From the NCBI GenBank assembly GCA_944359075.1, contig CALVSR010000003.1:1-44037 (forward strand): DNA of 44,037 nt. Direction: 5' to 3'. Shown here piece after piece: positions 1,012-28,336 of this stretch. The translations under genes and the position numbers were made by a program. This stretch comes from an uncultured Bacilli bacterium (GTDB lineage: Bacteria; Bacillota_I; Bacilli_A; RF39; UBA660). Position 1 is the stretch's first letter; each line of letters opens with the position of its first letter. The notes beneath the pieces are model-generated. The model was not told the DNA's origin. It searched no databases and saw only the letters and a program-made list of their open reading frames with translations.

Positions 1012-1166
1012 AGTTTTCCGTCACAAAATATACAATATGTTTACTATTATGGCAAATTAACGACAAAAAACGACAATCCAAAGCAAAAATGCCCCAAAAT
1101 CATTTTTATCGAATATTATATATCCAATATGTGATAAATAATCACATATTTTTTTGTAGGAGAAAT

Positions 1167-1922
1167 ATGATGGATCAATTAAAAATGGGGAAAATGATTG
1201 CTGAACTTAGAAAAAAACAAAATCTAACACAAGCACAATTAGGAGAAAAATTAAATGTAACAGATAAAACAATATCTAAATGGGAAAGAGGAAATAGAAC
1301 ACCAGATATTTCGATATTAAATGATTTAAGTAGGATTTTAAAAATTACCACGACTGAATTATTGGATAGTGAACAAATGGAAACACCCGCATTAAAAAGA
1401 TTGTTTCTGGATCATAGCAGTGAAACACAATATTTTAAAGATGTCAGTGAAGCACTATTATTATTTTTAAATAATCATTATGAAAACTGCTATGTTTATT
1501 TTATTCAAAGTCAAGATCATAATTATTATATCAATGGGTTAATTATCCATTCTAATGAAAAAGAGTTTATTAACATTCATTCGATTGAGAAACTTTCAAA
1601 TGATTCTATGAATTTAGAATCTGCATACACTTATGAATATTCCTTAAACATACAAAGTAATAGTATTTATAAACTGGGTAATATCTCGTTATATCAGCAT
1701 CATCATAATAAAGTTGCCATTCCTATCAGTGACATTTTAAGTGAAATTAAAATATACGTAGCAATAGACACAAAAGAAAATTATACTTTAGTAGAAAAAC
1801 CAAATCTTACCATAAAATATATCAATCAAGAATTCCAAGAAAAGGATATACAGATTCCTTTACTTACTCAGGAAATTTTTGCAAACCATAAAGTTACCTA
1901 TAAAGATACAACATATTTTTAG
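1167..1922 (+). CDS. XRE-family HTH transcriptional regulator with C-terminal domain of unknown function
   Basis: IAELRKKQNLTQAQLGEKLNVTDKTISKWERG is a classic XRE HTH. SD AGGAG at 1158-1162 favours ATG 1167/1170 over the ORF-track start at 1089. Confidence 0.85.
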   Translation: MMDQLKMGKMIAELRKKQNLTQAQLGEKLNVTDKTISKWERGNRTPDISILNDLSRILKITTTELLDSEQMETPALKRLFLDHSSETQYFKDVSEALLLFLNNHYENCYVYFIQSQDHNYYINGLIIHSNEKEFINIHSIEKLSNDSMNLESAYTYEYSLNIQSNSIYKLGNISLYQHHHNKVAIPISDILSEIKIYVAIDTKENYTLVEKPNLTIKYINQEFQEKDIQIPLLTQEIFANHKVTYKDTTYF

Positions 1923-1957: not shown

Positions 1958-2047
1958 TTCGCCAAATTGGCGATAAGACTCGCCAAATTGAGTGTGTTAT
2001 TTAGAATTTAGTTTTGTTATTCTCAAGATGTAAGGATGATCCTTACA
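1958..2047 (+). promoter_or_regulatory. Putative regulatory region of the toxin operon
   Basis: TCGCCAAATTG direct repeat at 1959-1969 and 1980-1990 (21-bp period); palindrome TCGCCA-AAT-TGGCGA; extended -10-like TGtTATTCT at 2015-2023; palindrome TGTAAGGA-TGA-TCCTTACA at 2029-2047. Confidence 0.45.
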
Positions 2048-2179: not shown

Positions 2180-2827
2180 ATGAATAATTATGATTATATA
2201 ATTAATTCTTTTACAAAAGAAGAAAATGACATTGATTTAGAAGTAGATAATTTAAATGTGGGATGTATCACATCAAAAAATAATAATTTTAATTTAGATA
2301 GTGAAGGAAACTTAACTGTAAAAAGTGTTACAGCACAACAAGGAACATTATCACAGGAAATTATTAGAAATTTAGTTTATCCAGTAGGTTCTATTTATAT
2401 GAATATTAATGCTACCAATCCAGCAACATTATTTGGTGGAACTTGGGAGCAATTACCAGACAGATTTTTATTAGGAGCTGGAAATAGTTATGCAGGAGGA
2501 AGCATTGGAGGAGAGGCAACACATACATTGACGGAAGCAGAAATACCATGGCATTATCATTCATTCAGCGGGACTACAGATGGCAATGGTAATCATTCTC
2601 ATACTGGTAATACATTAGAACTACGTCAAACTAGTTCATATAGCTATAGCAACGATGCTGCAAGGCCAATTACAAGTAGTGCTACTCATTATGGATTACA
2701 AATCACAAATGATGCAGGATGGCATCAACATACATATAGTGGAAATACAGTAGGCGCAGGAGGAAGTCAAGCTCACAATAATATGCCACCATACTTAGCA
2801 GTTTACATTTGGAAACGCACGGCTTAA
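2180..2827 (+). CDS. Phage baseplate/tail-fibre-tip-like protein (T4 gp10/gp12 C-terminal-like)
   Basis: YPVGSIYM...NPATLFGGTWEQL...GGEATHTLT...HxH repeats (HYH, HSH, HQH)...HNNMPPYLAVYIWKRTA are hallmark motifs of phage baseplate/tail-fibre collar and tip proteins. Confidence 0.8.
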   Translation: MNNYDYIINSFTKEENDIDLEVDNLNVGCITSKNNNFNLDSEGNLTVKSVTAQQGTLSQEIIRNLVYPVGSIYMNINATNPATLFGGTWEQLPDRFLLGAGNSYAGGSIGGEATHTLTEAEIPWHYHSFSGTTDGNGNHSHTGNTLELRQTSSYSYSNDAARPITSSATHYGLQITNDAGWHQHTYSGNTVGAGGSQAHNNMPPYLAVYIWKRTA

Positions 2828-2864: not shown

Positions 2865-5800
2865 GTGAAGGAAATAGAATTAATTGAAAAAAGAAAAGCT
2901 AATGAAAAACATTTTCTTCAAGAAGATGGAACTATTACTGCAAAGGTATATAGTAGTAATATTCATTATTTAAAAAATGGTAAATATGAAGATATTGATA
3001 ATACTTTAATAAAAAAAGATGATTGTTATATTAATAAAAACAATGATTATAAAGTGTTTTTTAAAGAACAAGGTAAAGATTCCTTAATGAGAATGGAAAG
3101 AGAAAATAACTATTTAGATATTAAGTTAAAACAAGGAAATGCAACTAAGCTAAAGAAACATCAAAAAACATCTCAATATGTAGAAGAAGTCTCATATCAT
3201 AATGCATTAAATGGAATAGATATTAAATATCAAACACTACCAACTAAAGTTAAAGAAACGATAATTTTAAATAATAATCAAACCAAAACAATAAAATTTA
3301 TTGTTGATACTAATTTATCTTTGGAATTAAAGGATAATACTATTATTGCCAAGGACCAAGATGAAAATGTATTCACAATTGAAAAGCCTTATATGGAGGA
3401 TTCAAATGGTGTTATTAATGAGAATATATCATATCAAATCACTAACAGCGACAATTTATATGAAATAGAACTAACACTAGATTCAGAGTGGTTGGACTCT
3501 GAAGAAAGACTATATCCTGTTTATGTTGATCCAACTATATCCGATGATAAAACTGCTAGTGGTATTATGGATACTTATATTTATCCAAATGATACGAATA
3601 CAGTTAGATATAATCAACCCATATTAAAAGCTGGTGTAGAAAGAGTTAACGGTGAAAATGTAATCAATAGAGCTTTAATTAAATTTAATCTCCCAACAAT
3701 TGGAACAGGTAGTGAGGTTATTAACGCCACTTTAACATTGTGCGGTTATCTTATGGACGACATGACTGGAACACAACAGTTTGGAAAAACAATAGCCATT
3801 CATAGAGTTACTGTGCCATGGACAGAAGAGACTGCCAACTGGGAAAATATGAATAATAATTATGATACAAGAATAGATGCCGTACAATTTGTAAATAGAA
3901 GTTGGTTAGAAAATGGCCAAATTATACCTCAATATAGTAGCGCCCTTTATGGGGATGTAACCGATTTGGTTAAACATTGGTATAAAGATACCCCTAACTA
4001 TGGAATCCTTATTAAATCAGCCAAAGAAGAATATATTGATGATGCTTATCCTGCATTTTATTCAAAAAATCATACAATACAAAATGCAAATCCGGAACCT
4101 GTTCTAAGTATTTCATATAGGAACCAAAGCGGGTTAGAATCTTATTATGATTATCAATCCCAGCAATTGACAGATGGAACAATATCAGTAAATACATATA
4201 ATGGAAATTTAGTTGGGGTATTTAATTTAGGGAAAACCATAGGTAGTCAATTGCCTGCAATTTTAAATCTCATTTATAACACAAATGATGTAATATTAAA
4301 AAATAATGGTTTTAGATTTAGTTTGAGTCAAACTTTAAAAGAAATTACTATAGATAATACACAAATCTATGAGTACATTGATGGAGATGGCACTGTTCAT
4401 TGTTTCAAAGACCAAACATTCCGTGTTTTAAAACCAGGTGTAACTCCCCCAACAGTGGAAGAAATTCTGGATGAAAATTATAACGAAGATGATTATTATG
4501 AAACAAGGGAATATTGTGCTGATGAAGATGGTTTATTACTTAAATTAGAACAAGTAGATAACAAATTTATTATTAAAGATAAATATGATAATAAAATGAC
4601 TTTCTCTAAAAATAATACAACAGACGAATTATATTATTTACAAGAATTAGAAGACATTTCTAATAATAAAATTCAAATAAATTATAATCAAAGCAATCAA
4701 CTTGTAAAAGTAATTGATTCTAGCAATCATGAAATTAATATAGATTATAATACAGCTAATGTAATTAAGGTAAGTAGTCCATCTTCAGAAACTACGATTG
4801 GATTTAGTAACAATAAAATTAATGTTATTACTACGAATAATGGTACGACTTCTCTTAATTACAATGAAAAAGATATTATTTCATCTATTATAGATGTGAA
4901 CGGTACTAAAATAGCTTATGAATATTATGATGAGATTCCTTATCGTATCAAAAAAGTAATACAGTATGGATTGAATGATACACTAGGACAATCTTTAATT
5001 TTCAAATACGGATTTAATGAAACTAGTATTACAGATAACAAAAATAGAACCAATACAATATTATTTAATTCTAGTGGAAATAAAATATCAAGTAATACAA
5101 TGGATACGGAAGAGGATATTAACAACGCATATTCTACTTATGACTCTATTGGAGAAAACAATAGTGATCGCTATTATGAAAAAAATAAGACATTATATTC
5201 TAATTGTATAGTTAAATATGTAAAAAATTATCTAAAAAATACAAGTTTTGAAGCAGATACAAATGATTATAATATTTCTAACATTGGTGGGGTAGAAACT
5301 AGCTATTCAACTGACTGTGCAAATTCCGGAACTAGAAGTTTAAAAGTAGCTACAACTAATAATTATAGTACTGTAACATTAGCAAGTAATATGAATATCT
5401 TAACTGGTAAATATTATACATTCAGTGGTTATTTTAAAAATGAACAAAAAGGAAAAATTATAGTTAGTTATACAGATAAACAAGATGGAAAAGAATATGA
5501 ATTTGTTGAGGAATTTAATGAATCATCCCAATTTGAAAGGCATGATATTACTTTCTGCATTAATGCTGATGAACCTGAAGATGTTGTCCTTTATGTCCAA
5601 CTTTTAGGACCTGGGACTTGTTACATCGATGACATCCAATTAGAAGATGGTCAAGTAGCAAATAATTATAATATGGTAGAAAACTCTGATTTCTCAGAAG
5701 GACTAAGTGATTGGTCATTTACTCCAATTGATTCTTCTAAAACGGATACTTATCAGCTATTTACATTTAATAACAATAAAAGTACAGCATTGAAAATTGA

Positions 5801-8800
5801 TTTGAGTAATTCCACAAAAGTAAGTAAGAAAATACCGATTAATGGTATAGCTGGTGATTGCTATGATATATCGTTCTGGATTAAAAATGAGGGAATAGTA
5901 GCAAATAATGGAATTATAGTAAACTGTGTTAATATATCATATGAACCAGTGGATGAAAACATGGAACAATATTGGGTAGTTAGCAATCCATTTGTACCTA
6001 ATAAAAGATGGCAATTTATAAATTATAAAAGTATAGCTCCATATAATTATAAATCTATTACTATAAGTTTTGAACATAATAATGAATTTAATCAGATGTC
6101 TATTACTAATATATATTTCTATAAAGATTTAGACACTACATATTATGAATACGATACTTATGGTAATTTAGTTCGTACTACTAATATTGCAGATTACAAT
6201 AATACATTTTCATATGATAAAAATAACCAATTGATTTCCGCAACAACGCCTAGGGGAAAACATTTCAAATTTGAATATGATAATACAGCAACTGATCGTG
6301 TTCTTAATGCTATATCCTCTATGGGAATTTCTAATCAAGTTAAATATGATTCCTTTGGTAATCCTATTTTGACTAGAATTAGTAAGAAAGCAAATTCTAG
6401 TCCAACAAATCTTTATCCAGTGGTTGATTCCAATTCAACAACGAGTTCTAGTTTGACAGAAGGTACATATAGAATTAGAAGTAAAGGTACTGAAAAATAC
6501 TTTAAGGCTGAATATAGCAGTGTATTTTTGGAAAGTGATTCCTGTAGTAATACCTTATGGGATTTAGAAAAGGTTGGAGATAAATTTAAATTTATTTATT
6601 CTGTTATTCCTACATATTCATTAGAATATTTAGATGATATATTGTTTCTAAGTACTAGTAACAGCAATAATTTATTTATCTTAGAAGAAAATAAAAATGG
6701 TAGTTATCATATTAAATTAGCAACAGAAGATAAGTATATAAAGGCAGATACTTCTTCATTAGCAGCAGCTTCTCTAATAGATGATGATCCTACTTTTGAA
6801 TTTTATTTTGAAGTAATAGGAGAACAGTTTATAGAAAATAGTGCTACTTACAGTGAAGATGGTAGATTTGTTACTAGTGTTACAGATAGTCTATTAAATA
6901 CAACTTCCTATACAACTAACTCTACAACTGGATTAGTAACTTCTATGACAAATGCTAATAATCAAGCCACTAATTATACATATAATAGTAAAAATCAAAT
7001 TACATCCATTACTCAAGGGAATAAAACTATAAATTATACATATAATACACAAAATCTATTAAGTAAAATTTCCCAAGGAACCAAAGAATATAATTTTACT
7101 TATGATGACTTCTTGAATGCAAAGAAAGTAATGATTGGAGACAATATTACACTAATAACCAATGAGTATGAAGAAAACAATGGTAATCTATTAAAATCAA
7201 TCTATGGAAATAATCACGAAATCTCTTTTGATTATGATCAGTTTGACCGAGTTCAAACAATTCATAAAATGGATAAAGATTATCAATATTTATATGACAG
7301 TAATGGAAATTTAGCTGAAATTTTAACAAACAACATCATTTCTACTTTTGATGCTCCATCAACAGAATTAGAAAAATGGTATGATTCTATTATAAAATAT
7401 AATTATGATACTATTAAAAGAATAAAAGAATATGTTAATGATAATTTTAAAATCCATTATACATATGACAAAAATGATAATGTAACAAGTAAACAATATA
7501 AACTGGATACTACTACTCACAATTTAGTAAATACATATGACAAAGATGATAATTTAACAAAAACAGTAGTAGATAACCAAGAAGTAAATTATCAATACGA
7601 TGAATTGGGTAGATTAATCAGTAAAAATATCAATGATAATTATACTACAAATTATGATTATATTTCACTTGGAAAAAGAACATCAACTTTAGTAAATAGT
7701 ATTCAGAATGGAAATAATAGATATTCTTACCAATATGATAAATTAAATAATATTACTCATCTTTACTATAATGGTGAACTTCAAAAACAATACTATTATG
7801 ATGATTACAATGAACTAATAAAAGAAGAGGATTACAATACTAATCAAAAAATAGAGTATAATTATGACAATTTTGGTAATTTATTAACAAAAACTACCAC
7901 AGATATGACAACAAATGCTATAATAAAGACAGATACTTATCAGTATTCTAATAGTAATTGGGAAGACCAACTAACAAACTTTAATGGAAGTAGTATTACA
8001 TATGATGCCATTGGAAACCCATTAACGATTGGAAATAGTATCGAGATGACTTGGATCAATGGTAGAAGTTTAAGTACCTATGAAGATACTACCAAGAACT
8101 TGAATATCAGTTATGAGTACAATGTAGATGGTATTAGAACAGCAAAGATAGTAAATCAAGTAGAAACTAAGTATTACCTAGAAAATAGTAATATTATCTA
8201 TGAACAAAGAGGAAACAACTTAATCTATTATCTATATGATTTAACAGGGTTAATAGGGTTAAAATACAATGATAATACTTATTATTACATTAAGAATCTA
8301 CAAGGAGATATTATAGGAGTACTAGATTCTAATTACAATCAAGTAGTATCTTATGAATACGATAGTTGGGGTAAAGTATTAAGTATTAAAGATAATCAAG
8401 GTAATGAAATTACAGATACAACCAATATCGGTATCATCAATCCATTTAGATATAGAGAATACTATTATGATACAGAAACTAGCTTATATTACTTAAATAG
8501 TAGGTACTATAATCCTGAATGGGGTAGATTTTTGAATGCGGATGGTATTTTGGGTGCTAATATGGATATATTAGGGTATAATTTATATGCCTATGTTAAT
8601 AATAATCCAATTACCATGAGCGATTTAAGTGGTAATTTTGCAATTTCTGCTTCCTTCGCTATTGCAGGAATAGTTGCTACTGCGATCGTAGCAGCGGCGG
8701 CAGCAGCTGTACCATCGATAATGAGAGCTGCTGTTCAGGCAACTGCAGATATTATCCAGCAAGTACAAATTCATAATGCGGAAAAGAGTAAAAAGAATCA

Positions 8801-9149
8801 AAATAAACCAGAAAACAATAATCACAACGTATATGTTCTTAAAGATAAAACTACTGGAAATATAGAGTATGTTGGAAGAACTCAAGATATTGGTAAAACA
8901 ACAATTAGACATCATAATAATCCATTTAGAACTGATTTAAGAATAGACCCAATAGCAATAAACATTTCCAGTGATGAAGCTAGAGGATTGGAACAAATGC
9001 TGATTATAAATTGTAGAACACTTAATAGAAATTCAGACTTTCCAATGAACAATCAAATTAATGGAATCTCACTAAAAAATCCAAAATATGCATTATATTG
9101 GGATGCAGCATTAACTTGGGCTTCAGAAAATGAATTACCATGTAAGTAA
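2865..9149 (+). CDS. WapA-like Rhs/YD-repeat polymorphic toxin with GIY-YIG-like nuclease tip
   Basis: 2094 aa, SD AAGGAG and GTG start. DNRLRE-like domain (DTYI...NRALIKFNL), two CBM-like domains (NYLKNTSFE; NMVENSDFS), ricin-like insert, many YD repeats, and Rhs core (PFRYREYYYD...YYLNSRYYNPEWGRF...NLYAYVNNNP..DLSG). A hydrophobic helix precedes the tip VYVLKD...EYVGRT...R...EARGLEQ...NQIN. Confidence 0.92.
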   Translation: MKEIELIEKRKANEKHFLQEDGTITAKVYSSNIHYLKNGKYEDIDNTLIKKDDCYINKNNDYKVFFKEQGKDSLMRMERENNYLDIKLKQGNATKLKKHQKTSQYVEEVSYHNALNGIDIKYQTLPTKVKETIILNNNQTKTIKFIVDTNLSLELKDNTIIAKDQDENVFTIEKPYMEDSNGVINENISYQITNSDNLYEIELTLDSEWLDSEERLYPVYVDPTISDDKTASGIMDTYIYPNDTNTVRYNQPILKAGVERVNGENVINRALIKFNLPTIGTGSEVINATLTLCGYLMDDMTGTQQFGKTIAIHRVTVPWTEETANWENMNNNYDTRIDAVQFVNRSWLENGQIIPQYSSALYGDVTDLVKHWYKDTPNYGILIKSAKEEYIDDAYPAFYSKNHTIQNANPEPVLSISYRNQSGLESYYDYQSQQLTDGTISVNTYNGNLVGVFNLGKTIGSQLPAILNLIYNTNDVILKNNGFRFSLSQTLKEITIDNTQIYEYIDGDGTVHCFKDQTFRVLKPGVTPPTVEEILDENYNEDDYYETREYCADEDGLLLKLEQVDNKFIIKDKYDNKMTFSKNNTTDELYYLQELEDISNNKIQINYNQSNQLVKVIDSSNHEINIDYNTANVIKVSSPSSETTIGFSNNKINVITTNNGTTSLNYNEKDIISSIIDVNGTKIAYEYYDEIPYRIKKVIQYGLNDTLGQSLIFKYGFNETSITDNKNRTNTILFNSSGNKISSNTMDTEEDINNAYSTYDSIGENNSDRYYEKNKTLYSNCIVKYVKNYLKNTSFEADTNDYNISNIGGVETSYSTDCANSGTRSLKVATTNNYSTVTLASNMNILTGKYYTFSGYFKNEQKGKIIVSYTDKQDGKEYEFVEEFNESSQFERHDITFCINADEPEDVVLYVQLLGPGTCYIDDIQLEDGQVANNYNMVENSDFSEGLSDWSFTPIDSSKTDTYQLFTFNNNKSTALKIDLSNSTKVSKKIPINGIAGDCYDISFWIKNEGIVANNGIIVNCVNISYEPVDENMEQYWVVSNPFVPNKRWQFINYKSIAPYNYKSITISFEHNNEFNQMSITNIYFYKDLDTTYYEYDTYGNLVRTTNIADYNNTFSYDKNNQLISATTPRGKHFKFEYDNTATDRVLNAISSMGISNQVKYDSFGNPILTRISKKANSSPTNLYPVVDSNSTTSSSLTEGTYRIRSKGTEKYFKAEYSSVFLESDSCSNTLWDLEKVGDKFKFIYSVIPTYSLEYLDDILFLSTSNSNNLFILEENKNGSYHIKLATEDKYIKADTSSLAAASLIDDDPTFEFYFEVIGEQFIENSATYSEDGRFVTSVTDSLLNTTSYTTNSTTGLVTSMTNANNQATNYTYNSKNQITSITQGNKTINYTYNTQNLLSKISQGTKEYNFTYDDFLNAKKVMIGDNITLITNEYEENNGNLLKSIYGNNHEISFDYDQFDRVQTIHKMDKDYQYLYDSNGNLAEILTNNIISTFDAPSTELEKWYDSIIKYNYDTIKRIKEYVNDNFKIHYTYDKNDNVTSKQYKLDTTTHNLVNTYDKDDNLTKTVVDNQEVNYQYDELGRLISKNINDNYTTNYDYISLGKRTSTLVNSIQNGNNRYSYQYDKLNNITHLYYNGELQKQYYYDDYNELIKEEDYNTNQKIEYNYDNFGNLLTKTTTDMTTNAIIKTDTYQYSNSNWEDQLTNFNGSSITYDAIGNPLTIGNSIEMTWINGRSLSTYEDTTKNLNISYEYNVDGIRTAKIVNQVETKYYLENSNIIYEQRGNNLIYYLYDLTGLIGLKYNDNTYYYIKNLQGDIIGVLDSNYNQVVSYEYDSWGKVLSIKDNQGNEITDTTNIGIINPFRYREYYYDTETSLYYLNSRYYNPEWGRFLNADGILGANMDILGYNLYAYVNNNPITMSDLSGNFAISASFAIAGIVATAIVAAAAAAVPSIMRAAVQATADIIQQVQIHNAEKSKKNQNKPENNNHNVYVLKDKTTGNIEYVGRTQDIGKTTIRHHNNPFRTDLRIDPIAINISSDEARGLEQMLIINCRTLNRNSDFPMNNQINGISLKNPKYALYWDAALTWASENELPCK
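8128..8531 (+). repeat. Rhs core repeat copy 1 (404 bp, near-identical to 10141-10544)
   Basis: Manual alignment at offset 2013 shows 4 substitutions. Confidence 0.92.
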
Positions 9150-9161
9150 GGAGGAATGAAT

Positions 9162-10037
9162 ATGGGAGCTTGGGGAACAGGCTTATATCAAGATGATGTA
9201 ACATGCGATATTAAAGAAGAATATCTAAATAGACTAAGAATAGGATATACAAATATTGAAGCAACACAAGAAGTAATCGACCATAATATGGATTCTATTG
9301 AAGATGTAGAAGATGGACCACTTTTTTGGTTTGCTTTGGCAGATGTGCAATGGAAATATGGAAGGTTGCTGCCAGAAGTAAAAGAGGAAGCTTTAAAATA
9401 TATTCAAAGTGGCAATGATCTAGAAAGATGGAAAGAAAATAAAAAACAATATGAGAAAAGAAAACAAGTGTTAAAAGAACTTGAAGTAAGGCTTAATTCC
9501 CCTCAGCCACCAGAAAAAAAATTAACAAAGCTTACAATACATAAAGCAACATGGGAAGTTGGTGATGTTTTACTATATCAAATTCATAATGGTGGATTAA
9601 GAAATAATGAAATTGTACGAAACAGTAAGTGGTACAATAAATATGTATTATTACGAGTAGTTGGTATTACTAAGACTAATATTGGCAGTTTGCCTAGAAA
9701 GTATTCCCATGAACAGAATGTAGTAAAAATCTATAATTGGGTTGGTGAATCTGAACCAACTATAGAATTAATAAATAAACTGCAATTTATTATTGGAGAA
9801 AATTTATATAAACGGTTAGAGGAATCTAAATTTACATTAAGTTTTAGTAAAAAAGAACTAAAACAATTAAATTTTAAGACTATTCAAAAAGATCATAATT
9901 ATAAAGAAGTATCGGATCATATTATGAGTATAGTAGGTATACCGTGGGAAAACATTAATACAATTGATCTTGCTTTTATTCAAGCTTTAGATGCCGCAGA
10001 AGAAGAAGGAATTTTAATAGATGAAACTTGTGAGTAA
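9162..10037 (+). CDS. Putative cognate immunity protein (DUF4259-like N-terminus)
   Basis: Directly after the toxin stop with SD AAGGAGG. The MGAWGTGLYQDD N-terminus is typical of DUF4259-like genes found downstream of toxins. Confidence 0.7.
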   Translation: MGAWGTGLYQDDVTCDIKEEYLNRLRIGYTNIEATQEVIDHNMDSIEDVEDGPLFWFALADVQWKYGRLLPEVKEEALKYIQSGNDLERWKENKKQYEKRKQVLKELEVRLNSPQPPEKKLTKLTIHKATWEVGDVLLYQIHNGGLRNNEIVRNSKWYNKYVLLRVVGITKTNIGSLPRKYSHEQNVVKIYNWVGESEPTIELINKLQFIIGENLYKRLEESKFTLSFSKKELKQLNFKTIQKDHNYKEVSDHIMSIVGIPWENINTIDLAFIQALDAAEEEGILIDETCE

Positions 10038-10058: not shown

Positions 10059-11194
10059 TTGAATTGGATCAATGGAAGAAGTTTATGTAGCTATAGTGAT
10101 TCTTCTAACGATTTAGATATCATTTATGAGTATGATGAAAATGGTATTAGAACAGCAAAGATAGTAAATCAAGTAGAAACTAAGTATTACCTAGAAAATA
10201 GTAATATTATCTATGAGCAAAGAGAAAACAACTTAATCTATTATCTATATGATTTAACAGGGTTAATAGGATTAAAATACAATGATAATACTTATTATTA
10301 CATTAAGAATCTACAAGGAGATATTATAGGAATACTAGATTCTAATTACAATCAAGTAGTATCTTATGAATACGATAGTTGGGGTAAAGTATTAAGTATT
10401 AAAGATAATCAAGGTAATGAAATTACAGATACAACCAATATCGGTATCATCAATCCATTTAGATATAGAGAATACTATTATGATACAGAAACTAGCTTAT
10501 ATTACTTAAATAGTAGGTACTATAATCCTGAATGGGGTAGATTTATTAATGCAGATAATTATATATCAACTGATACTGGATTACTGGGTTATAATATGTA
10601 TAATTACGCAAATAATAATCCTATAACTTTTGCGGATCCAATGGGTCATGCTGTTTTTATTGGATTATTAGTAGGAATTGTCGCAGCTGGAGCAGCGGGT
10701 ATAGCATATGGCATAAATAATAAGAAACAAAATCAAAAAGCTATCAAAGAAATTAATCAAGTTCAAAAAAAATATCCTAATTCTGTTCCAAATCCGTCTA
10801 AATCAGTTCAATTTCAGGAAACACTAAAAACTAATGCATCTATTGTGAAATCTGAAACTAAAAATATGAATCAGTTCCAAAAATTAGATTACTTTATTAA
10901 TAATGTTAAAACTGGTGGAAAATATGATTTGAAGAATACCGAGGAATGGAAAAACACTGATATATATTATGATGGGTGATTATGGAACCTCAAGATATTG
11001 GAAACTATCACTTTGGTTATATTGGCAGAGCAATGGGTTATGATACTGAATTCTTAACTTCTGGAGCTGGTGCTTATCAATTATATAGTGGAACAGCTAA
11101 AATATCTTGGTGTTTTACAACTAATAATTGTGATGATCCAAGAGATAATTATTATATTAGATTGGGCGCAATTGCATATGATAAAAATAATTAA
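10059..11194 (+). pseudogene. Orphan Rhs core plus C-terminal toxin (Ntox44-like RNase), split by a 1-bp frameshift
   Basis: ORFs 10059-10979 and 10976-11194 join if GATGGGTGATT (~10971-10981) had one more G. Motifs: DPMG cleavage site, TM helix, VKTGGKYDLK...DIGNYHFGYIG...GAG...DDPRD (Ntox44). No SD before 10059. Confidence 0.8.
10141..10544 (+). repeat. Rhs core repeat copy 2
   Basis: Near-identical to 8128-8531. Confidence 0.92.
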
Positions 11195-14100: not shown

Positions 14101-14126
14101 GCCTATTAGTGAAAGGAGAAATGAAC

Positions 14127-14486
14127 ATGGAAGAGTTTATAGAACATATTATGGCAATGAATGAGCCAAAATTATTATTTATATTATGTGGAATATTTAT
14201 ATTTACAGATGTTCTAACAGGATATTTAAAGGCATTTAAAACAAAAAAAATTAATTCATCTATTAGTAGAGATGGTTATTTAAAGAAAGTATCTTGGCTA
14301 ATAGCATTAATTTTTGGATTTGTAATTGATTATTTAGTAGGTACACAATTATTTTTAATTGGAACAGCAGTAGTATGTGTGATAACAGAGGGAATATCCG
14401 TTTATGAAAATCTTGGCGAATTAGGAGTTAGCTTACCATTTACAAAGTACTTTGAAAAAGTAAAAGATAATAGTGAGATTATATAG
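14127..14486 (+). CDS. Phage holin family 4 (TcdE/Cp-1-type) holin
   Basis: DVLTG..KA....INSSISRDG..KK and EGISVYENLG.LG motifs, 3 TM helices; SD AAGGAG 8 nt before ATG 14127. Confidence 0.88.
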   Translation: MEEFIEHIMAMNEPKLLFILCGIFIFTDVLTGYLKAFKTKKINSSISRDGYLKKVSWLIALIFGFVIDYLVGTQLFLIGTAVVCVITEGISVYENLGELGVSLPFTKYFEKVKDNSEII

Positions 14487-14501: not shown

Positions 14502-15374
14502 GTGAATTATTTTACATTTGGGATGAAAGTGTTAAGAGTAACGCAAAACTATAATGGATCTACTTCGCATAAAGCACACTGGTATCACTCTACTAACTAT
14601 GCAGATTATCCAATTGACTGTGCTGGAAAAGATGGTGACAAAGATATTTACTATGCACCAGTAGATATGAAAGTAACGGCTGTAAAAGGAATAGGTAATG
14701 CTACTACTAATACTATTTGGTTAGTAGCATGTGAAAAATGTATGACCCCAAGCGGAGAAATATTACCTTTTATTATGCTAACTCATTTTAATGATAATGA
14801 TCCCTATGTATCTAATTTGAAAGTAGGTTCTATTGTGAAACAGGGACAACCTATTTGTGAAGAAGGAACAGATGGTGCTACTGCGAATCATTTACACATC
14901 GTAGTAGGAAATGCAGATAGAGGTTGTGGAAATGGTTTCATTCAAAACTCTAATGGTAAGTGGGTTAGTAATGGTTACTGTATGAAACCAGAAGAAATTA
15001 TGTATATAGATAAAGACTTCACAAATGTACTTGATACCAATGGTATTATTTTTAAAGATAAGCCCAAAGAAGAACCAAAAGAAAGTTTTTTTGGATCAAA
15101 AGGGTACTTTTGTTTAGGAAATTATCATGAAAATATTGGAAAAATTTGCGATTTCTTTGCTGAATATTTTTATGGATACTTTTATAAAGGAGAAAATGCT
15201 AAAGCAAAGGCTCATCAAGTCTTAGACGGAAATTATTTTGGACCTTATTTAAAAAAATGGACAATAGAGTTTCAAAAACGTGCTAAAGATGAAGGAAAAT
15301 ACAATGATGAAATAGATGGATGCATTGGCCCTAAAACCCTAACTGCCTTAAAATATTATGGATTTCAAGAATAG
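14502..15374 (+). CDS. Endolysin-like peptidoglycan hydrolase: M23-type peptidase plus C-terminal PG-binding domain
   Basis: H...PID..G.DG, YAP, KVG..VKQGQ.I..EG.DG...NHLH (M23 Zn motif); C-terminal DG.YFGP......EFQK...DGCIGPKT (PG_binding_1-like); no signal peptide. Confidence 0.85.
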   Translation: MNYFTFGMKVLRVTQNYNGSTSHKAHWYHSTNYADYPIDCAGKDGDKDIYYAPVDMKVTAVKGIGNATTNTIWLVACEKCMTPSGEILPFIMLTHFNDNDPYVSNLKVGSIVKQGQPICEEGTDGATANHLHIVVGNADRGCGNGFIQNSNGKWVSNGYCMKPEEIMYIDKDFTNVLDTNGIIFKDKPKEEPKESFFGSKGYFCLGNYHENIGKICDFFAEYFYGYFYKGENAKAKAHQVLDGNYFGPYLKKWTIEFQKRAKDEGKYNDEIDGCIGPKTLTALKYYGFQE

Positions 15375-20841: not shown

Positions 20842-21723
20842 TTAACTGTCACTTTTTATCTTTCGATAGGCTTTTCCTTTTTCTAATTCTATATTATAAT
20901 GATCACACAACTCACTAATAGTTACAAATTTATATTCTTCCGTCAATTCTGGTAATATTTCATTTAACACTTCTATATCTACCTCATGAACAGCACTAGT
21001 ATCATGCATTAATATAATACATCCAGGTTCAATATAGTCCAGTATTTCTTGTTTGATTTGTTCTTTATCTTTGGTTTTCCAATCCTCTGTATCTATATTC
21101 CATAAAATAAAAGGATATTCGATATTCTCTTTTAGAGTATCATTCAAGCTACCATAAGGTGGTCTTACTAGACAAGAGGATTCTATTCCTAATGACGCAA
21201 TATAATCCATCGTATTAGTGATTTCTTGATTGACTTGATCTATACTTAATTTTGTAAAAGAAGTATGAGTATCTCCATGAATAGCTATTTCATGTCCAGA
21301 ATCAGAAATAGTAGTAAGTGCATCAGGATAATTTTCAGAATTACAACCCAAAACAAAGAAAGTGGATTTAACACCGTAAGAGTCAAGCACCTCGACTAAT
21401 TCTTCCGTATATTTGCTAGGACCATCATCAAAAGTAAGTGCTACTAGTCCTCTGTTGTCTTCTTCTACTGGTTCTTCGGTTGCTATAGAAGGTAGAGTGG
21501 GTGAGGGTAACACTTCCGTACTTTCATGAGTAGTTATAGTACTACTTTCGCTAGAAATCACTGGTGAAGAATTAGTATTCATCTCATTTTTTGTCTCTTG
21601 TTCTATTTTAATATCAAAATGTTTAGTTTCATCTGTCTTTTTTTCAAAACTACATCCAACTGAAGTACTAGATACTATTAATATAGTACCAATTCTCAAA
21701 ACTAAGTTCTTTATTTTTAGCAT
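20842..21723 (-). CDS. Polysaccharide deacetylase (NodB/CE4), probable lipoprotein
   Basis: ALTFDDGP, HEIAIHGDTH, RPPYG, DTEDWK and ILMHD motifs; lipobox-like SVGC. Confidence 0.92.
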   Translation of the reverse strand: MLKIKNLVLRIGTILIVSSTSVGCSFEKKTDETKHFDIKIEQETKNEMNTNSSPVISSESSTITTHESTEVLPSPTLPSIATEEPVEEDNRGLVALTFDDGPSKYTEELVEVLDSYGVKSTFFVLGCNSENYPDALTTISDSGHEIAIHGDTHTSFTKLSIDQVNQEITNTMDYIASLGIESSCLVRPPYGSLNDTLKENIEYPFILWNIDTEDWKTKDKEQIKQEILDYIEPGCIILMHDTSAVHEVDIEVLNEILPELTEEYKFVTISELCDHYNIELEKGKAYRKIKSDS

Positions 21724-25693: not shown

Positions 25694-25795
25694 AATATCA
25701 CCATCTATTATATTGTACCATGTATTAACCTCTAAAACCAGTTTCATTGCTATTTTAAATTACATGTAGTAGAATAGAGCTAGGTGATAAACAGT

Positions 25796-28336
25796 ATGAA
25801 CAAAATCAAAAAATTTTGGCAAAATAATTCTGAAATAAAAATTCATTGCTTACTATTAATTTTCTTTGGCCTTTTAGCGACTTTTTTAATTACAAAGTTT
25901 GAATTTGTATTTGGTTCTAATGTCGATTGGTTAAAACAACACATAGCTTTTCCAGATTACTTTAGAAATTTATTTTATCAAACAGGCGATTTATTTCCTG
26001 ATTTTGCTACCCACTTAGGAGCTGGACAAAATATATTTTATTTTGCCTATTATGGATTATATAGTCCTATCATTATGATTTCTTATTTATTACCTTTTAT
26101 TCCCATGGGCGTTTATATTATGGTTAGTAGTGTCTTACTTGTCATTCTCTCTACTTTATTATTATATTATTTTTTGAAAAAAAACAAACTATCAAATTCC
26201 ATTTGTTTTTTCTCTTCTTTATTACTACTGTTTTCGAGTAGTTATGTATTTCACAGTCATCGCCACATCATGTTTGTCAATTATATGCCATTTTTAATCT
26301 TAGCTTTAATTGGAGTATGGCGCTATTTTGAAAAGAAGAAAAGTGGATTATTAGTAATTAGTGCTTCTCTCATGATTTTAACTAGTTATTATTATAGTGT
26401 GGGTGGTTTCCTTACAATCTGTCTTTATGCCTTATATTACTATTTAAAACAACAGAAAAAGAACTCTTTAAAAAATTTCTTTATCGCAATGTTTCAGTTT
26501 TTAGCTAGAATTTTACTATCTATTTTATTATCTGCGTTTTTACTATTTCCAGTAATATATGTAATTATCCATGGTAGAAGTAACAGCACTGTTAGTTTTG
26601 ATTTTTCTCTATTAAAACCCCATATAAGTTTAGATTATCTCATGTATGGTACCTATGGAATGGGATTAGTAGCAATTTTTTGGATTGCTATTGTTTATCA
26701 TATGATATTTTCTAAAAAAGAATATAAGGTAATTACCATCTTACTTAGTATCTTAATCACTATCCCTATTTTTAATTATATCCTAAATGGTGGGCTATAT
26801 TTGAATGGTAAAGTATGGATTCCTCTTTTACCTCTAGGAATATTTTTAATAGCTAGTATGATTCAAATTCTACCTAGTCAAAAAAAATCTTGGAAATGGT
26901 TCTTACGGCTTCTCTTAGGTAGTGCTTTCCTACTGATAGGAATTTCAAAAGATGCTACCTACTATTATTTTTATGGAGAACTGTTAGTTACTTTTCTTCT
27001 GCTATGGATCTATCAGAAAAAAAAGAGATTTTATATTTTAACACCAATTCTAATAGCTGCAGCCATTACTTTTTATAACAACAATATAAATGATGATCTA
27101 GTAACTATAACAGAATATCAAAAACAACAATCTTACTACCAGTATGATGTTTTAAATTATATCAATCAAGATACAGATACTATTTATCGTTATCAGGATG
27201 ATTTAAGTGGAGCAAATGGCATGAATTTTTCTTATGGAACATTAGATTATAGAACTACCCTATACTCTTCTACCATCAATCCTAATTATTCACAAAATTT
27301 TTATTCTACTTTTAACAATAATGATCTTTATCGAAACCATTTCATGTTAGCTCAAACCAATAATCTCTTCTTTCAAAATTTTATGGGCATACGTTATTTA
27401 TTAACCAATCAAGAACCACCGGTTGGTTATCAGCCAATCAAAGAATATAAAGATGGAATTTTATATGAAAACCCTAATGTCTATCCAATTGGATTCAGTA
27501 GCAGTCATATTTTAAGTAGCAAAGACTATCAAGATTTATCCTATATTGAAAAACTAGAAGCTTACCAAAATAACATCATTGTTTCTGTAGATAGTCAAAA
27601 CGAAAATTTAGAATTTACTCATTCAGAAAGTACTTTGAATACCACAATAGAAAGCCAAGAAAATATTTCTTTTGAAAAAACTGCTAATGGTTATCAAATA
27701 GAAAGTCAAAAAAATGGAAAAATAGTATTAAATTTAGAAAAACCAATATCTGATACCAGTCTTATAATTCAGTTCAAAATGAATTATATTCCTAGTTGTA
27801 AAGAAGGCGATACAGCCATAACTATCAACGGTATTATGAACAAACTAACTTGTCGTACTTGGAAATATTATAACCAAAATGAAACTTTTGATTATGTTCT
27901 TTCTAGCAATCATGAAATAGGTCAGTTAGTCATCGAGTTTGCCAAAGGAACTTATGATATTTCTGATATTGTTTTATATGAAATTCCTAACGAATTCTTT
28001 AGGCAAGCCAAGGAAATCACACCTATTCATATTGATTTTTCTAAAACCAAGGGAGATTCCCTATATGGAAATATTGCAGTAGAAGAAGATGGCTATTTTC
28101 TATTTACCATACCGTATGATCAAGGATTTACTTTATATGTAGATGGTAAGGAAACAGAAATTGAGTGCGTAAATGATATGTTCATAGGATTCCCAATTCA
28201 GACAGGAAATCATAGTATTCATTTAGAATTTACTGCTCCCTACTCCACTTCGGGAATTATCATCACTACCATAAGTGCTTTGGGTTTGATTGGTTTGATG
28301 ATATTCGAAAATAAGAAACTAAAAAGGAAAAAGTAG
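25796..28336 (+). CDS. yfhO: YfhO-family membrane glycosyltransferase
   Basis: DW..QH..F..Y, G.GQN....AYYGLYSP, many TM helices, C-terminal TIPYDQGF...VDG motif. Confidence 0.8.
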   Translation: MNKIKKFWQNNSEIKIHCLLLIFFGLLATFLITKFEFVFGSNVDWLKQHIAFPDYFRNLFYQTGDLFPDFATHLGAGQNIFYFAYYGLYSPIIMISYLLPFIPMGVYIMVSSVLLVILSTLLLYYFLKKNKLSNSICFFSSLLLLFSSSYVFHSHRHIMFVNYMPFLILALIGVWRYFEKKKSGLLVISASLMILTSYYYSVGGFLTICLYALYYYLKQQKKNSLKNFFIAMFQFLARILLSILLSAFLLFPVIYVIIHGRSNSTVSFDFSLLKPHISLDYLMYGTYGMGLVAIFWIAIVYHMIFSKKEYKVITILLSILITIPIFNYILNGGLYLNGKVWIPLLPLGIFLIASMIQILPSQKKSWKWFLRLLLGSAFLLIGISKDATYYYFYGELLVTFLLLWIYQKKKRFYILTPILIAAAITFYNNNINDDLVTITEYQKQQSYYQYDVLNYINQDTDTIYRYQDDLSGANGMNFSYGTLDYRTTLYSSTINPNYSQNFYSTFNNNDLYRNHFMLAQTNNLFFQNFMGIRYLLTNQEPPVGYQPIKEYKDGILYENPNVYPIGFSSSHILSSKDYQDLSYIEKLEAYQNNIIVSVDSQNENLEFTHSESTLNTTIESQENISFEKTANGYQIESQKNGKIVLNLEKPISDTSLIIQFKMNYIPSCKEGDTAITINGIMNKLTCRTWKYYNQNETFDYVLSSNHEIGQLVIEFAKGTYDISDIVLYEIPNEFFRQAKEITPIHIDFSKTKGDSLYGNIAVEEDGYFLFTIPYDQGFTLYVDGKETEIECVNDMFIGFPIQTGNHSIHLEFTAPYSTSGIIITTISALGLIGLMIFENKKLKRKK

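Follow-up and report, generated by a model that had tools for sequence, protein, structure and literature searches.

The window analysed here, a stretch of 44,037 nt from contig CALVSR010000003.1 of an uncultured Bacilli bacterium, carries two adjacent genes on its forward strand. One encodes a stand-alone tail-fibre tip protein of 215 aa (2180..2827), recognized by its open reading frame (ORF) and by Pfam, PHROG and PDB profile matches, and the other a leaderless Rhs/YD polymorphic toxin of 2094 aa (2865..9149), recognized by RHS_repeat, YD_repeat_2x and Rhs_assc_core matches. The stop codon of the fibre gene ends at 2827 and the Rhs ORF opens with a GTG at 2865, so the intergenic gap is 37 nt, in agreement with the spacing given in an initial annotation of this DNA. 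A GGAG-type ribosome site lies 5' of the Rhs GTG, and no terminator-like site was found on the forward strand between the two genes.

The collar-like domain that the initial annotation had seen in the fibre is real and corresponds to PF21939 (Gp10_C; 'Baseplate structural protein Gp10, C-terminal domain'), which matches residues 64-214 with an E-value of 1.8e-21 and 78 bits against a cut-off of 27, spanning 137 of the 139 profile positions; PF07484 ('Collar') is absent among the Pfam matches at E <= 0.01. Twelve PHROG families also match the protein (best E 1.5e-28), and 11 of these are annotated as tail or tail fibre; an NCBIfam search returned no family. Four segments can be told apart along the forward strand: a conserved N-terminal adaptor module and proposed Rhs dock (residues 1-58; 2180..2353), delimited by sequence identity and the Mantel test described below; a collar core (residues 64-127; 2369..2560), placed by the Gp10_C match and ending in the conserved H125-x-H127; a hypervariable distal tip (residues 128-193; 2561..2758), marked by its identity and length variation and holding HxH motifs 2 and 3; and a conserved C-terminal strand (residues 194-215; 2759..2824; AHNNMPPYLxVYxWKR), delimited by identity, which aligns with the C-termini of T4 gp10 and SU10 gp16. 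The three HxH motifs previously read from the sequence are present (H125-Y-H127, H139-S-H141 and H182-Q-H184), which exceeds what composition predicts, as only 255 of 100,000 shuffled versions of the protein contain as many. Of 46 Rhs-linked homologues, 42 keep H125 and 42 keep H127, and H139, H141, H182 and H184, all in the variable tip, are kept in 21-24 of the 46. All 13 homologue pairs compared gave dN/dS values of 0.01-0.27, indicative of purifying selection, and the fibre gene is in all probability functional. Its N-terminus of ~55 aa, taken earlier merely to replace a virion-attachment region, does exist, but it is among the conserved parts of the protein, and residues 1-58 look like the attachment module itself.

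A profile built from 33 fibre homologues recovered two phage receptor-binding structures from the PDB, the short tail fibre of phage SU10 (7z47_I, E 6.4e-7) and the C-terminal domain of T4 gp10 (2fkk_A, E 1e-6), with the alignments placing the fibre at the C-terminal end of these solved relatives; a single-sequence phmmer search of the PDB returned nothing at E <= 1. The two His pairs of SU10 gp16, opposite which HxH motifs 2 and 3 fall in the alignment, were proposed by the SU10 authors to be Fe2+ sites, the metal itself not being resolved (PMC9509320). The same work describes gp16 as a small stand-alone trimeric fibre whose N-terminal residues clamp the dock loop of one nozzle protein (PMC9509320). 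SU10 gp16 (PDB 7Z47) is the nearest relative of known structure; it, too, is small (267 aa) and stands alone, docks through a short N-terminal part and has His pairs in its tip, and by analogy it is a structural precedent for a short N-terminal adaptor. The C-terminal domain of T4 gp10 (PDB 2FKK; Pfam PF21939) is a homologous collar/tip domain. Within their virions, gp16 and gp10 dock on a nozzle or baseplate, whereas the window fibre has an Rhs toxin as its neighbour.

Residues 62-215 of the fibre are also 44-47% identical to the C-terminal end of a 'putative antireceptor' in the Lactobacillus delbrueckii phages LL-Ku, c5, Ld3, Ld17, Ld25A and phiLdb, the LL-Ku match being the last 142 codons of ORF19. 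These antireceptors are virion parts of ~650 aa with a long shaft, whereas the window fibre has only 215 aa and stands alone. In phage LL-H, a studied relative of the phages matched, host-range mutations have been mapped to the C-terminal region of the antireceptor Gp71, and the receptor is lipoteichoic acid (PMC3870949); our own comparison was with the six phages named above. Prophage homologues of the fibre are C-termini of tail proteins of 450-965 aa, and more than 7,800 short homologues exist.

By its domain layout, the second gene of the pair encodes an Rhs/YD polymorphic toxin, with the Rhs-associated core (TIGR03696, Rhs_assc_core) at residues 1832-1923, ahead of a variable C-terminus. 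Residues 1-235 (2865..3569), modelled as all-beta (AF2 on 46 sequences, pLDDT 85.9), form a module common to phage tail-tip/virion proteins. This region matches phrog_37549 'virion structural protein' (E 3.1e-14); residues 1-328 share 23-25% identity with proteins of the Bacillus phages PBC1, Carmen17, Wes44, LY5 and BCE1, among which PBC1 gp18 (25% identity to the Rhs N-terminus) directly follows the tape measure gene; and a 440-residue Rhs model is fully covered by a siphovirus protein of 1379 aa (BFVD A0A8S5MN12, E 2e-28, TMq 0.73). On the strength of these three kinds of match, the front end of the Rhs protein looks like a phage tail-tip protein. It is followed by a DNRLRE/CBM96-like carbohydrate-binding module at residues 236-416 (3570..4112), supported by NCBIfam DNRLRE_dom (E 1.1e-21), Pfam CBM96 (E 7.6e-9) and Foldseek matches to 7vbo and 8wab (TMt 0.63-0.65, prob 1.00). 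At the other end, the C-terminal cargo (8634..9146) consists of a hydrophobic helix (residues ~1923-1955, from hydropathy) and a variable toxin domain, for which only a weak GIY-YIG match (E 0.03, below the cut-off) was obtained; C-terminal Pfam domains vary among 115 Rhs homologues. The hydrophobic helix lies directly after the Rhs core, at the start of the cargo, and may aid membrane insertion of the toxin.

An alignment-based scan of genome contigs yielded 475 confirmed relatives of the fibre, of which the best 80, all ORF-called, were examined; these loci (L numbers below) were all reached through the fibre and ordered by resemblance to the Rhs-linked query, with 395 of the 475 falling outside the sample. 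The initial annotation had tied its proposal in advance to a conserved linkage with Rhs genes in other genomes, and such linkage is what we find. The next same-strand ORF after the fibre is an Rhs homologue in 48 of the 80 loci, the distance being -25 to +369 nt and in most cases 0-40 nt, and six more loci (L017, L018, L031, L032, L042 and L048) have a single ORF of 105-135 aa between fibre and Rhs. Altogether, Rhs follows the fibre in 54/80 loci, or 55/81 counting the window, a fraction biased upward by the fibre-anchored, query-ranked sampling; the set referred to below as directly linked comprises 49 loci. The linked Rhs proteins are mostly ~2000 aa long, some being cut by contig ends, and their matches extend from residue 1 to about residue 1950 of the window protein where the contig allows.

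The 26 other loci fall into three kinds: C-termini of phage-type tail proteins of 456-965 aa, tandem arrays of collar-only proteins, and short proteins in other contexts. A tail protein combining DUF859 with Gp10_C, followed by holin and lysin genes, is found in L040, L052, L053, L077 and L079. Across these 26 loci, the match to the window fibre usually begins only at residue ~25-66. The collar-only proteins (124-197 aa) are without the N-module and are arrayed in eight copies in L054 (6979-10859) and in three copies each in L068 and L072.

Several variations on the paired arrangement were also observed. A small ORF of 88-135 aa (family f11) adjoins the fibre gene in L017, L018, L026, L031, L032, L042, L048 and L060; in seven of these loci it separates fibre from Rhs, a 19-nt overlap with the fibre stop being frequent, and in L060 it immediately precedes the fibre genes. 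Searches of the ESM Atlas, Pfam and PHROGs gave no lead on this family, which may be a fibre assembly helper. Long fibre forms of 349-403 aa, with an extra N-terminal domain of ~170 aa ahead of the conserved adaptor motif, occur in L017-L020, L026, L028, L031-L033, L035, L038 and L067, and this extension matched no separate PHROG family. Two loci labelled as Bacteroides helcogenes (L033) and Clostridium sp. CAG:1000 (L035) have fibre and Rhs N-termini that are 94-98% identical, and several loci labelled Muribaculaceae bear the Bacilli-type fibre-Rhs locus as well; some taxon labels of these metagenome-assembled genomes (MAGs) look doubtful.

To describe how the parts of the fibre have evolved relative to its partner, we aligned 46 fibres and their 46 Rhs N-termini, and determined for each segment the mean pairwise identity and the Mantel correlation with Rhs residues 1-235. 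The N-module (residues 1-58; identity 0.45) correlates with the Rhs N-terminus (rho 0.49, p <= 0.001), and the collar (64-127; identity 0.53) does not (rho 0.05, p 0.30); the C-terminal strand (194-215) has an identity of 0.66 with rho 0.22 (p 0.021). Variability of the tip across homologous loci, which the initial annotation had suggested comparing, is extreme: residues 128-193 show a mean identity of 0.12 with large length changes (rho 0.14, p 0.047). The N-module thus tracks the Rhs N-terminus though collar and tip intervene on the DNA. Individual pairs illustrate the uncoupling of the tip, with L011 and L023 being 0.78 identical in the Rhs N-terminus and 0.03 in the tip, and L003 and L008 0.74 and 0.18, respectively. 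Two loci, L036 and L047, encode a DUF859 phage tail protein of 649-650 aa ~1.4 kb upstream, and its tip shares 68% and 60% identity, respectively, with the fibre tip of the same locus; this homology starts exactly at the collar, after the N-module, and includes the otherwise hypervariable part. In a quick tree of the tips, in which 50 of 94 branches are open and resolution is poor, Rhs-linked and phage-type tips are mixed, with 21 label changes, at least 2 of which are forced by well-supported branches. Judged from these alignments, the pattern is that of a conserved backbone, made up of adaptor and Rhs, whose receptor-binding cassette is exchanged with phages. The co-variation of N-module and Rhs is compatible with a co-evolving physical interface, without being proof of one.

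Both members of the pair appear to lack a secretion leader. Our test was the maximum 15-aa hydropathy within the first 45 aa, a crude measure involving no signal-peptide predictor, by which a hydrophobic N-terminus was found in 0/46 Rhs proteins and 1/46 fibres, the exception being probably an over-long ORF call. The value never rose above 0.89 in any of the 46 linked Rhs N-termini, and hydropathy revealed no WapA-type N-terminal signal among them. More broadly, the Rhs N-terminal module is represented by 4,986 cluster representatives (50% identity clusters) at E <= 1e-3. Among the best 150 of these, 118 start with the module, none of them having a hydrophobic leader, and 32 have an extension of at least 25 aa, hydrophobic in 27; hence a leaderless class and a leader-bearing class exist. 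As a contrast, we examined nine loci anchored on Rhs instead of the fibre: four Bacillaceae plasmid 'DNRLRE domain-containing' Rhs, three uncultured gut contigs, PBC1 and a Streptococcus suis element. Six-frame translation gave no fibre-profile match in any of the nine. All seven non-virion relatives among them (L084-L090) have a hydrophobic leader, and none of these seven leader-bearing Rhs genes has a fibre gene within 9-12 kb. This small sample points the same way, namely that the fibre goes with the leaderless Rhs class.

Lysis genes recur beside the pair. Of the 49 directly linked loci, 26 have holin or endolysin-type genes a few kb away at most, in at least four arrangements. A holin and an endolysin are encoded 5' of the fibre, on the same strand, in 13 related loci, with one endolysin family (f5) present in 13, and the full order regulator, XhlA-like, holin, endolysin, fibre, Rhs is seen in 10. 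Only holin and endolysin are retained before the fibre in L009, L036, L037 and L047; L025 has the order HTH, HTH, holin, lysin, fibre, Rhs; L008 and L029 have holin, fibre, Rhs; and L021, L041 and L049 carry a divergent lysin and holin upstream. Lysis genes lie 3' of Rhs in L004, L020, L026, L035, L038 and L045 and also in the window, where a forward-strand holin of 125 aa with three hydrophobic segments by hydropathy (14109..14486; Pfam Phage_holin_4_1 E 1e-19; phrog_199) is followed by an endolysin-like protein of 290 aa (14502..15374, forward strand; phrog_9066 endolysin E 3.6e-11; weak Peptidase_M23). The window shows the combination of leaderless cargo with linked holin and endolysin, as in lysis-released toxins of the type 10 secretion system (T10SS) kind. 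In three loci the surroundings are more phage-like: the pair comes just after holin and endolysin in L036, L037 and L047, with the DUF859 tail protein further upstream in L036 and L047, and in L036 (111-10588) it follows a siphophage-like block of major tail protein, ORFs of 663, 231 and 635 aa, DUF859 tail protein, holin and endolysin.

A 160-aa protein consisting only of sigma-70 region 4 adjoins the pair in 11 loci, 7 directly linked and 4 with an intervening ORF (L006, L007, L011, L020, L022, L035 and L067, plus L017, L018, L031 and L032). Its gene is upstream of the fibre in L017, L018, L020, L031, L032 and L067 and downstream in L006, L007, L011 and L035. The protein is reminiscent of small sigma factors found in clostridial toxin and bacteriocin loci.

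Elsewhere in the window, an XRE/Cro-type helix-turn-helix (HTH) regulator of 277 aa is encoded on the forward strand upstream of the fibre gene (1089..1922; Pfam HTH_3 E 1.9e-15), and its homologues (family f8) are found near the pair in 7 linked loci. A spacer of 257 nt separates the regulator gene from the fibre gene, which is plausibly the first gene of a toxin operon, as had been predicted. Within this spacer, a repeat search found the 11-nt word TCGCCAAATTG in two copies 21 nt apart (1958..1990), the first within a TCGCCA-N3-TGGCGA palindrome, and the repeat may be an operator. Directly behind the Rhs gene, a forward-strand gene for a protein of 293 aa (9156..10037), with no family match in Pfam, NCBIfam or PHROG, has a 56%-identical homologue following the Rhs of L024, the only locus in which the Rhs match runs through the toxin end (residues 1-2094); given this co-occurrence with the same toxin end, the gene probably encodes the cognate immunity protein. 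It is followed on the same strand by an orphan Rhs C-terminal cassette (10059..11194), whose Rhs core (ORF 10059..10979; TIGR03696 E 4e-19) and Ntox44 toxin end (overlapping ORF 10976..11194; E 4.1e-12) are in different frames, so that the cassette looks split. No phage structural gene (head, tail, tape measure, tube or sheath) was detected among the scanned ORFs across the 44-kb window, the remainder of which is housekeeping, including hrcA-grpE-dnaK-dnaJ, MnmA and YfhO. Two envelope genes lie a few kb from the locus, for a polysaccharide deacetylase (20842-21723) and a YfhO-family membrane protein (25784-28336), and a link between these and receptor modification would be speculation. A sigma-70 promoter scan of the window did no better than shuffles (114 found against 122 expected). 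The window contains no Rfam family, no tRNA and no GC island, its GC content being 23-34% throughout.

Drawing on the domain identities, the conserved pairing, the modular evolution of the fibre, the absence of leaders and the recurrent lysis genes described above, our preferred reading, to which we give a probability of roughly 0.55, is that the locus encodes a phage-derived, lysis-released Rhs bacteriocin guided by the fibre tip to the surface of rival cells. Fibre and Rhs would be the two components of an antibacterial toxin particle constructed out of pieces of a phage tail tip. Being leaderless, both proteins would fold in the cytoplasm, where the fibre would trimerize, as its homology with gp10 and SU10 gp16 suggests, and its residues 1-58 would dock on the phage-tail-like N-terminal region of the Rhs protein. 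Collar and tip (residues 64-215) would act as an exchangeable module recognizing a surface glycopolymer, for example a teichoic acid or polysaccharide, on related Gram-positive cells, possibly with metal held by the HxH motifs, while the CBM96-like module of the Rhs protein would add a second contact of lower specificity. The complex would leave through the linked holin and endolysin, by lysis of a subpopulation or by holin-dependent release. On a bound target, the Rhs cage would free its C-terminal cargo of hydrophobic helix and polymorphic toxin domain, and the downstream gene would protect kin.

This reading keeps only part of the initial annotation. The idea of a receptor-binding partner dedicated to the Rhs protein gains from the linkage, the homology with phage receptor-binding proteins and the hypervariable, exchanged tip, but a cap for the Rhs shell finds no support. 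The analogy with VgrG/PAAR falls away, as no scanned ORF of the window matches PAAR or type VI secretion system (T6SS) proteins, and a PAAR/VgrG-like spike was accordingly rejected for want of such domains. The analogy with TcA holds for receptor binding and lysis-type release only; nothing suggests a translocation channel, and a TcA-like channel was rejected in the absence of any homologue.

Several results weigh against the preferred reading or loosen its individual steps. Where the window fibre has H125-x-H127, only one His is found in T4 gp10, so metal binding there is no family constant. AF2 gave a poor monomer model of the fibre (pLDDT 65.9), and a Foldseek search with it ranked gp10 chains best at E-values of only 0.016-0.08, with no PDB fold match at E <= 0.001. 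The contact between fibre and Rhs is proposed from the pairing and the co-variation of the N-module; the pairing frequency carries the upward bias noted above, and the co-variation can also be explained by recombination of tip cassettes on a shared backbone, with no interface at all. A fusion of the two proteins would have spoken for contact, and none of 115 Rhs homologues (1151-3665 aa) carries PF21939; nor did we find longer proteins of 378-2000 aa carrying the fibre N-module, which is weak evidence because a protein in that size range cannot hold a fibre-Rhs fusion. As to release, 23 of the 49 directly linked loci have no recognized lysis gene in the stretch examined, and the lysis cassette of the window lies 5 kb downstream of Rhs, past other genes. 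Finally, the Rhs protein could in principle do without a separate subunit for targeting, having carbohydrate-binding modules of its own.

The strongest rival draws on the same components. In it, the fibre would bind the wall polymer of the producer itself and display the leaderless Rhs protein there after release, with killing being contact-dependent and WapA-like. The pairing and the N-module evidence fit this equally well, and the tips of L036 and L047 are most like the phage-type tail protein of the same locus; if that block is a resident prophage, the receptor would be of the surface type of its own host. Release by a lysis cassette, however, is easier to square with a diffusible particle than with a toxin displayed by a living cell, hypervariable tips swapped among close Rhs backbones fit target diversification, and neither Pfam nor NCBIfam revealed a wall-anchor or sortase signal in the window Rhs, which leads us to regard self-anchoring as unlikely. 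We think it rather unlikely, too, that the fibre is an independent lectin-like adhesin or agglutinin, expressed with the Rhs protein and not binding it. Stand-alone and tandem collar-only proteins do exist without Rhs (L054, L068 and L072), the short homologues are abundant and no Rhs fusion has turned up; yet the collar-only arrays lack the N-module, their matches starting at residue ~52-67, whereas the N-module is conserved in Rhs-linked fibres and tracks the Rhs N-terminus, and the intergenic gaps are mostly ~10-40 nt.

Closer to the phage ancestry of both proteins, fibre and Rhs might be alternative tail-tip parts on a siphophage-type tail encoded elsewhere, with the toxin delivered by that tail in a virion or tailocin. 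The homology of the Rhs N-terminus to PBC1 gp18, encoded after the tape measure, and to the 1379-aa siphovirus protein would suit this, as would the position of the pairs in L036, L037 and L047 just after holin and endolysin, the DUF859 tail protein upstream in L036 and L047, and the major tail protein and further tail-region ORFs ahead of the DUF859 gene in L036. We nevertheless hold it to be improbable, because no tail, head or tape-measure gene is present among the scanned ORFs of the window, most linked loci have regulators and lysis genes upstream rather than structural genes, and the behaviour of a 2000-aa Rhs protein accompanied by an immunity gene and orphan cassettes is that of a polymorphic toxin. 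Elsewhere, as with T6SS Rhs effectors, Rhs toxins need adaptor or chaperone genes encoded alongside, and the position of the fibre immediately upstream of Rhs would fit a chaperone-like protein that helps in assembly or secretion, or that plugs or caps the Rhs cage, without any role in targeting. Such a helper would have no reason to carry a hypervariable receptor-binding tip common to phage tail proteins, and neither Pfam nor NCBIfam matched the fibre to a known family of Rhs chaperones, making this highly improbable. A decaying prophage remnant lying beside Rhs by chance is the least credible alternative: the fibre is phage-derived and a holin and lysin are nearby without structural genes, but Rhs follows the fibre in loci from MAGs of varied taxon labels, and both this synteny and the dN/dS values contradict decay.

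Returning to the fibre-guided bacteriocin, its parts are all of known kinds, and what is new is the combination of a separate phage fibre tip, a phage-like Rhs N-terminus, the lack of a leader and a lysis cassette. No published description of a fibre-tip/Rhs pairing was found in the full-text literature searched, outside which most subscription journals lie. Tail-fibre repeats feature in a published list of the central modules of polymorphic toxins (Zhang et al. 2012, PMC3482391), and the accessible part of that text makes no mention of a separate fibre-tip gene ahead of Rhs. How large leaderless Gram-positive Rhs toxins leave the producer and find their target is poorly understood, and the recurrence in gut Bacilli of a phage tip, a phage-like Rhs N-terminus and a lysis cassette suggests a concrete mechanism of release and targeting, with potential reach across the ~5,000 clusters (50% identity) that have the Rhs N-terminal module. 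If the reading is right, a swappable fibre tip, common to prophages as well, would decide toxin specificity in these gut communities, phage host range would be tied to bacterial antagonism, and thousands of short proteins with a phage tail-fibre-tip domain would gain a rationale. More tentatively, and with odds against it at present, we propose that these loci represent a widespread, undescribed class of tail-less, leaderless Gram-positive bacteriocins, that is, a domesticated siphophage tail tip in which a post-tape-measure protein was fused to an Rhs cage, with a separate exchangeable fibre whose tips come from the same pool as the tips of resident prophages. Lysis would release such particles and the fibre would steer them to their target, and the class would stand to Gram-positive bacteria as a counterpart of Tc toxins and umbrella particles.

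Among known systems, WapA-type and leader-bearing Bacillaceae DNRLRE Rhs proteins have the same Rhs N-terminal module and DNRLRE/CBM96 module (31-33% identity), along with polymorphic C-termini and orphan cassettes, but those examined possess a hydrophobic leader and have no fibre gene within 9-12 kb (0 of 7), whereas the window Rhs is leaderless and fibre-linked. R- and F-type tailocins are likewise of phage origin, owe their targeting to exchangeable tail-fibre tips and leave the cell by means of a lysis cassette. They kill with the tail itself, however, and the window has no tube, sheath or tape measure, so that the killing part would be the Rhs toxin domain. In T6SS Rhs effectors, associated with PAAR/VgrG, the N-terminus of the Rhs cage similarly adapts to a delivery device of phage-tail ancestry, but the partner in the window is a receptor-binding fibre rather than a spike, and no PAAR, VgrG, Hcp or other T6SS match was obtained among the scanned window ORFs.

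In terms of function, Tc toxins with T10SS release and the umbrella toxin particles are closest. Tc toxins released in this way are leaderless, with holin and endolysin genes in or near the operon (PMC10847048). Like the window system, Tc toxins (TcA + TcB/TcC) combine an Rhs-type cage bearing a C-terminal toxin with a separate receptor-binding component, no leader and lysis genes. They differ in that the window has a single-chain Rhs protein with a phage fibre tip as its targeting part, no scanned window ORF matching TcA, VRP1, SpvB or the TcB beta-propeller, and in that the likely targets here are bacteria, in a setting of Gram-positive gut Bacilli. The Streptomyces umbrella particles (UmbA lectins, UmbB and UmbC) are described as carrying a polymorphic toxin with diversified lectins that set specificity through surface glycopolymers (PMC11062931, PMC13274773). 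The pairing of a polymorphic toxin with separate, diversified targeting subunits is thus common to both, but the umbrella proteins are unrelated (an ALF-repeat toxin and trypsin-like lectins) and Sec-secreted, whereas the window system joins an Rhs cage to a phage fibre and would probably be released by lysis.

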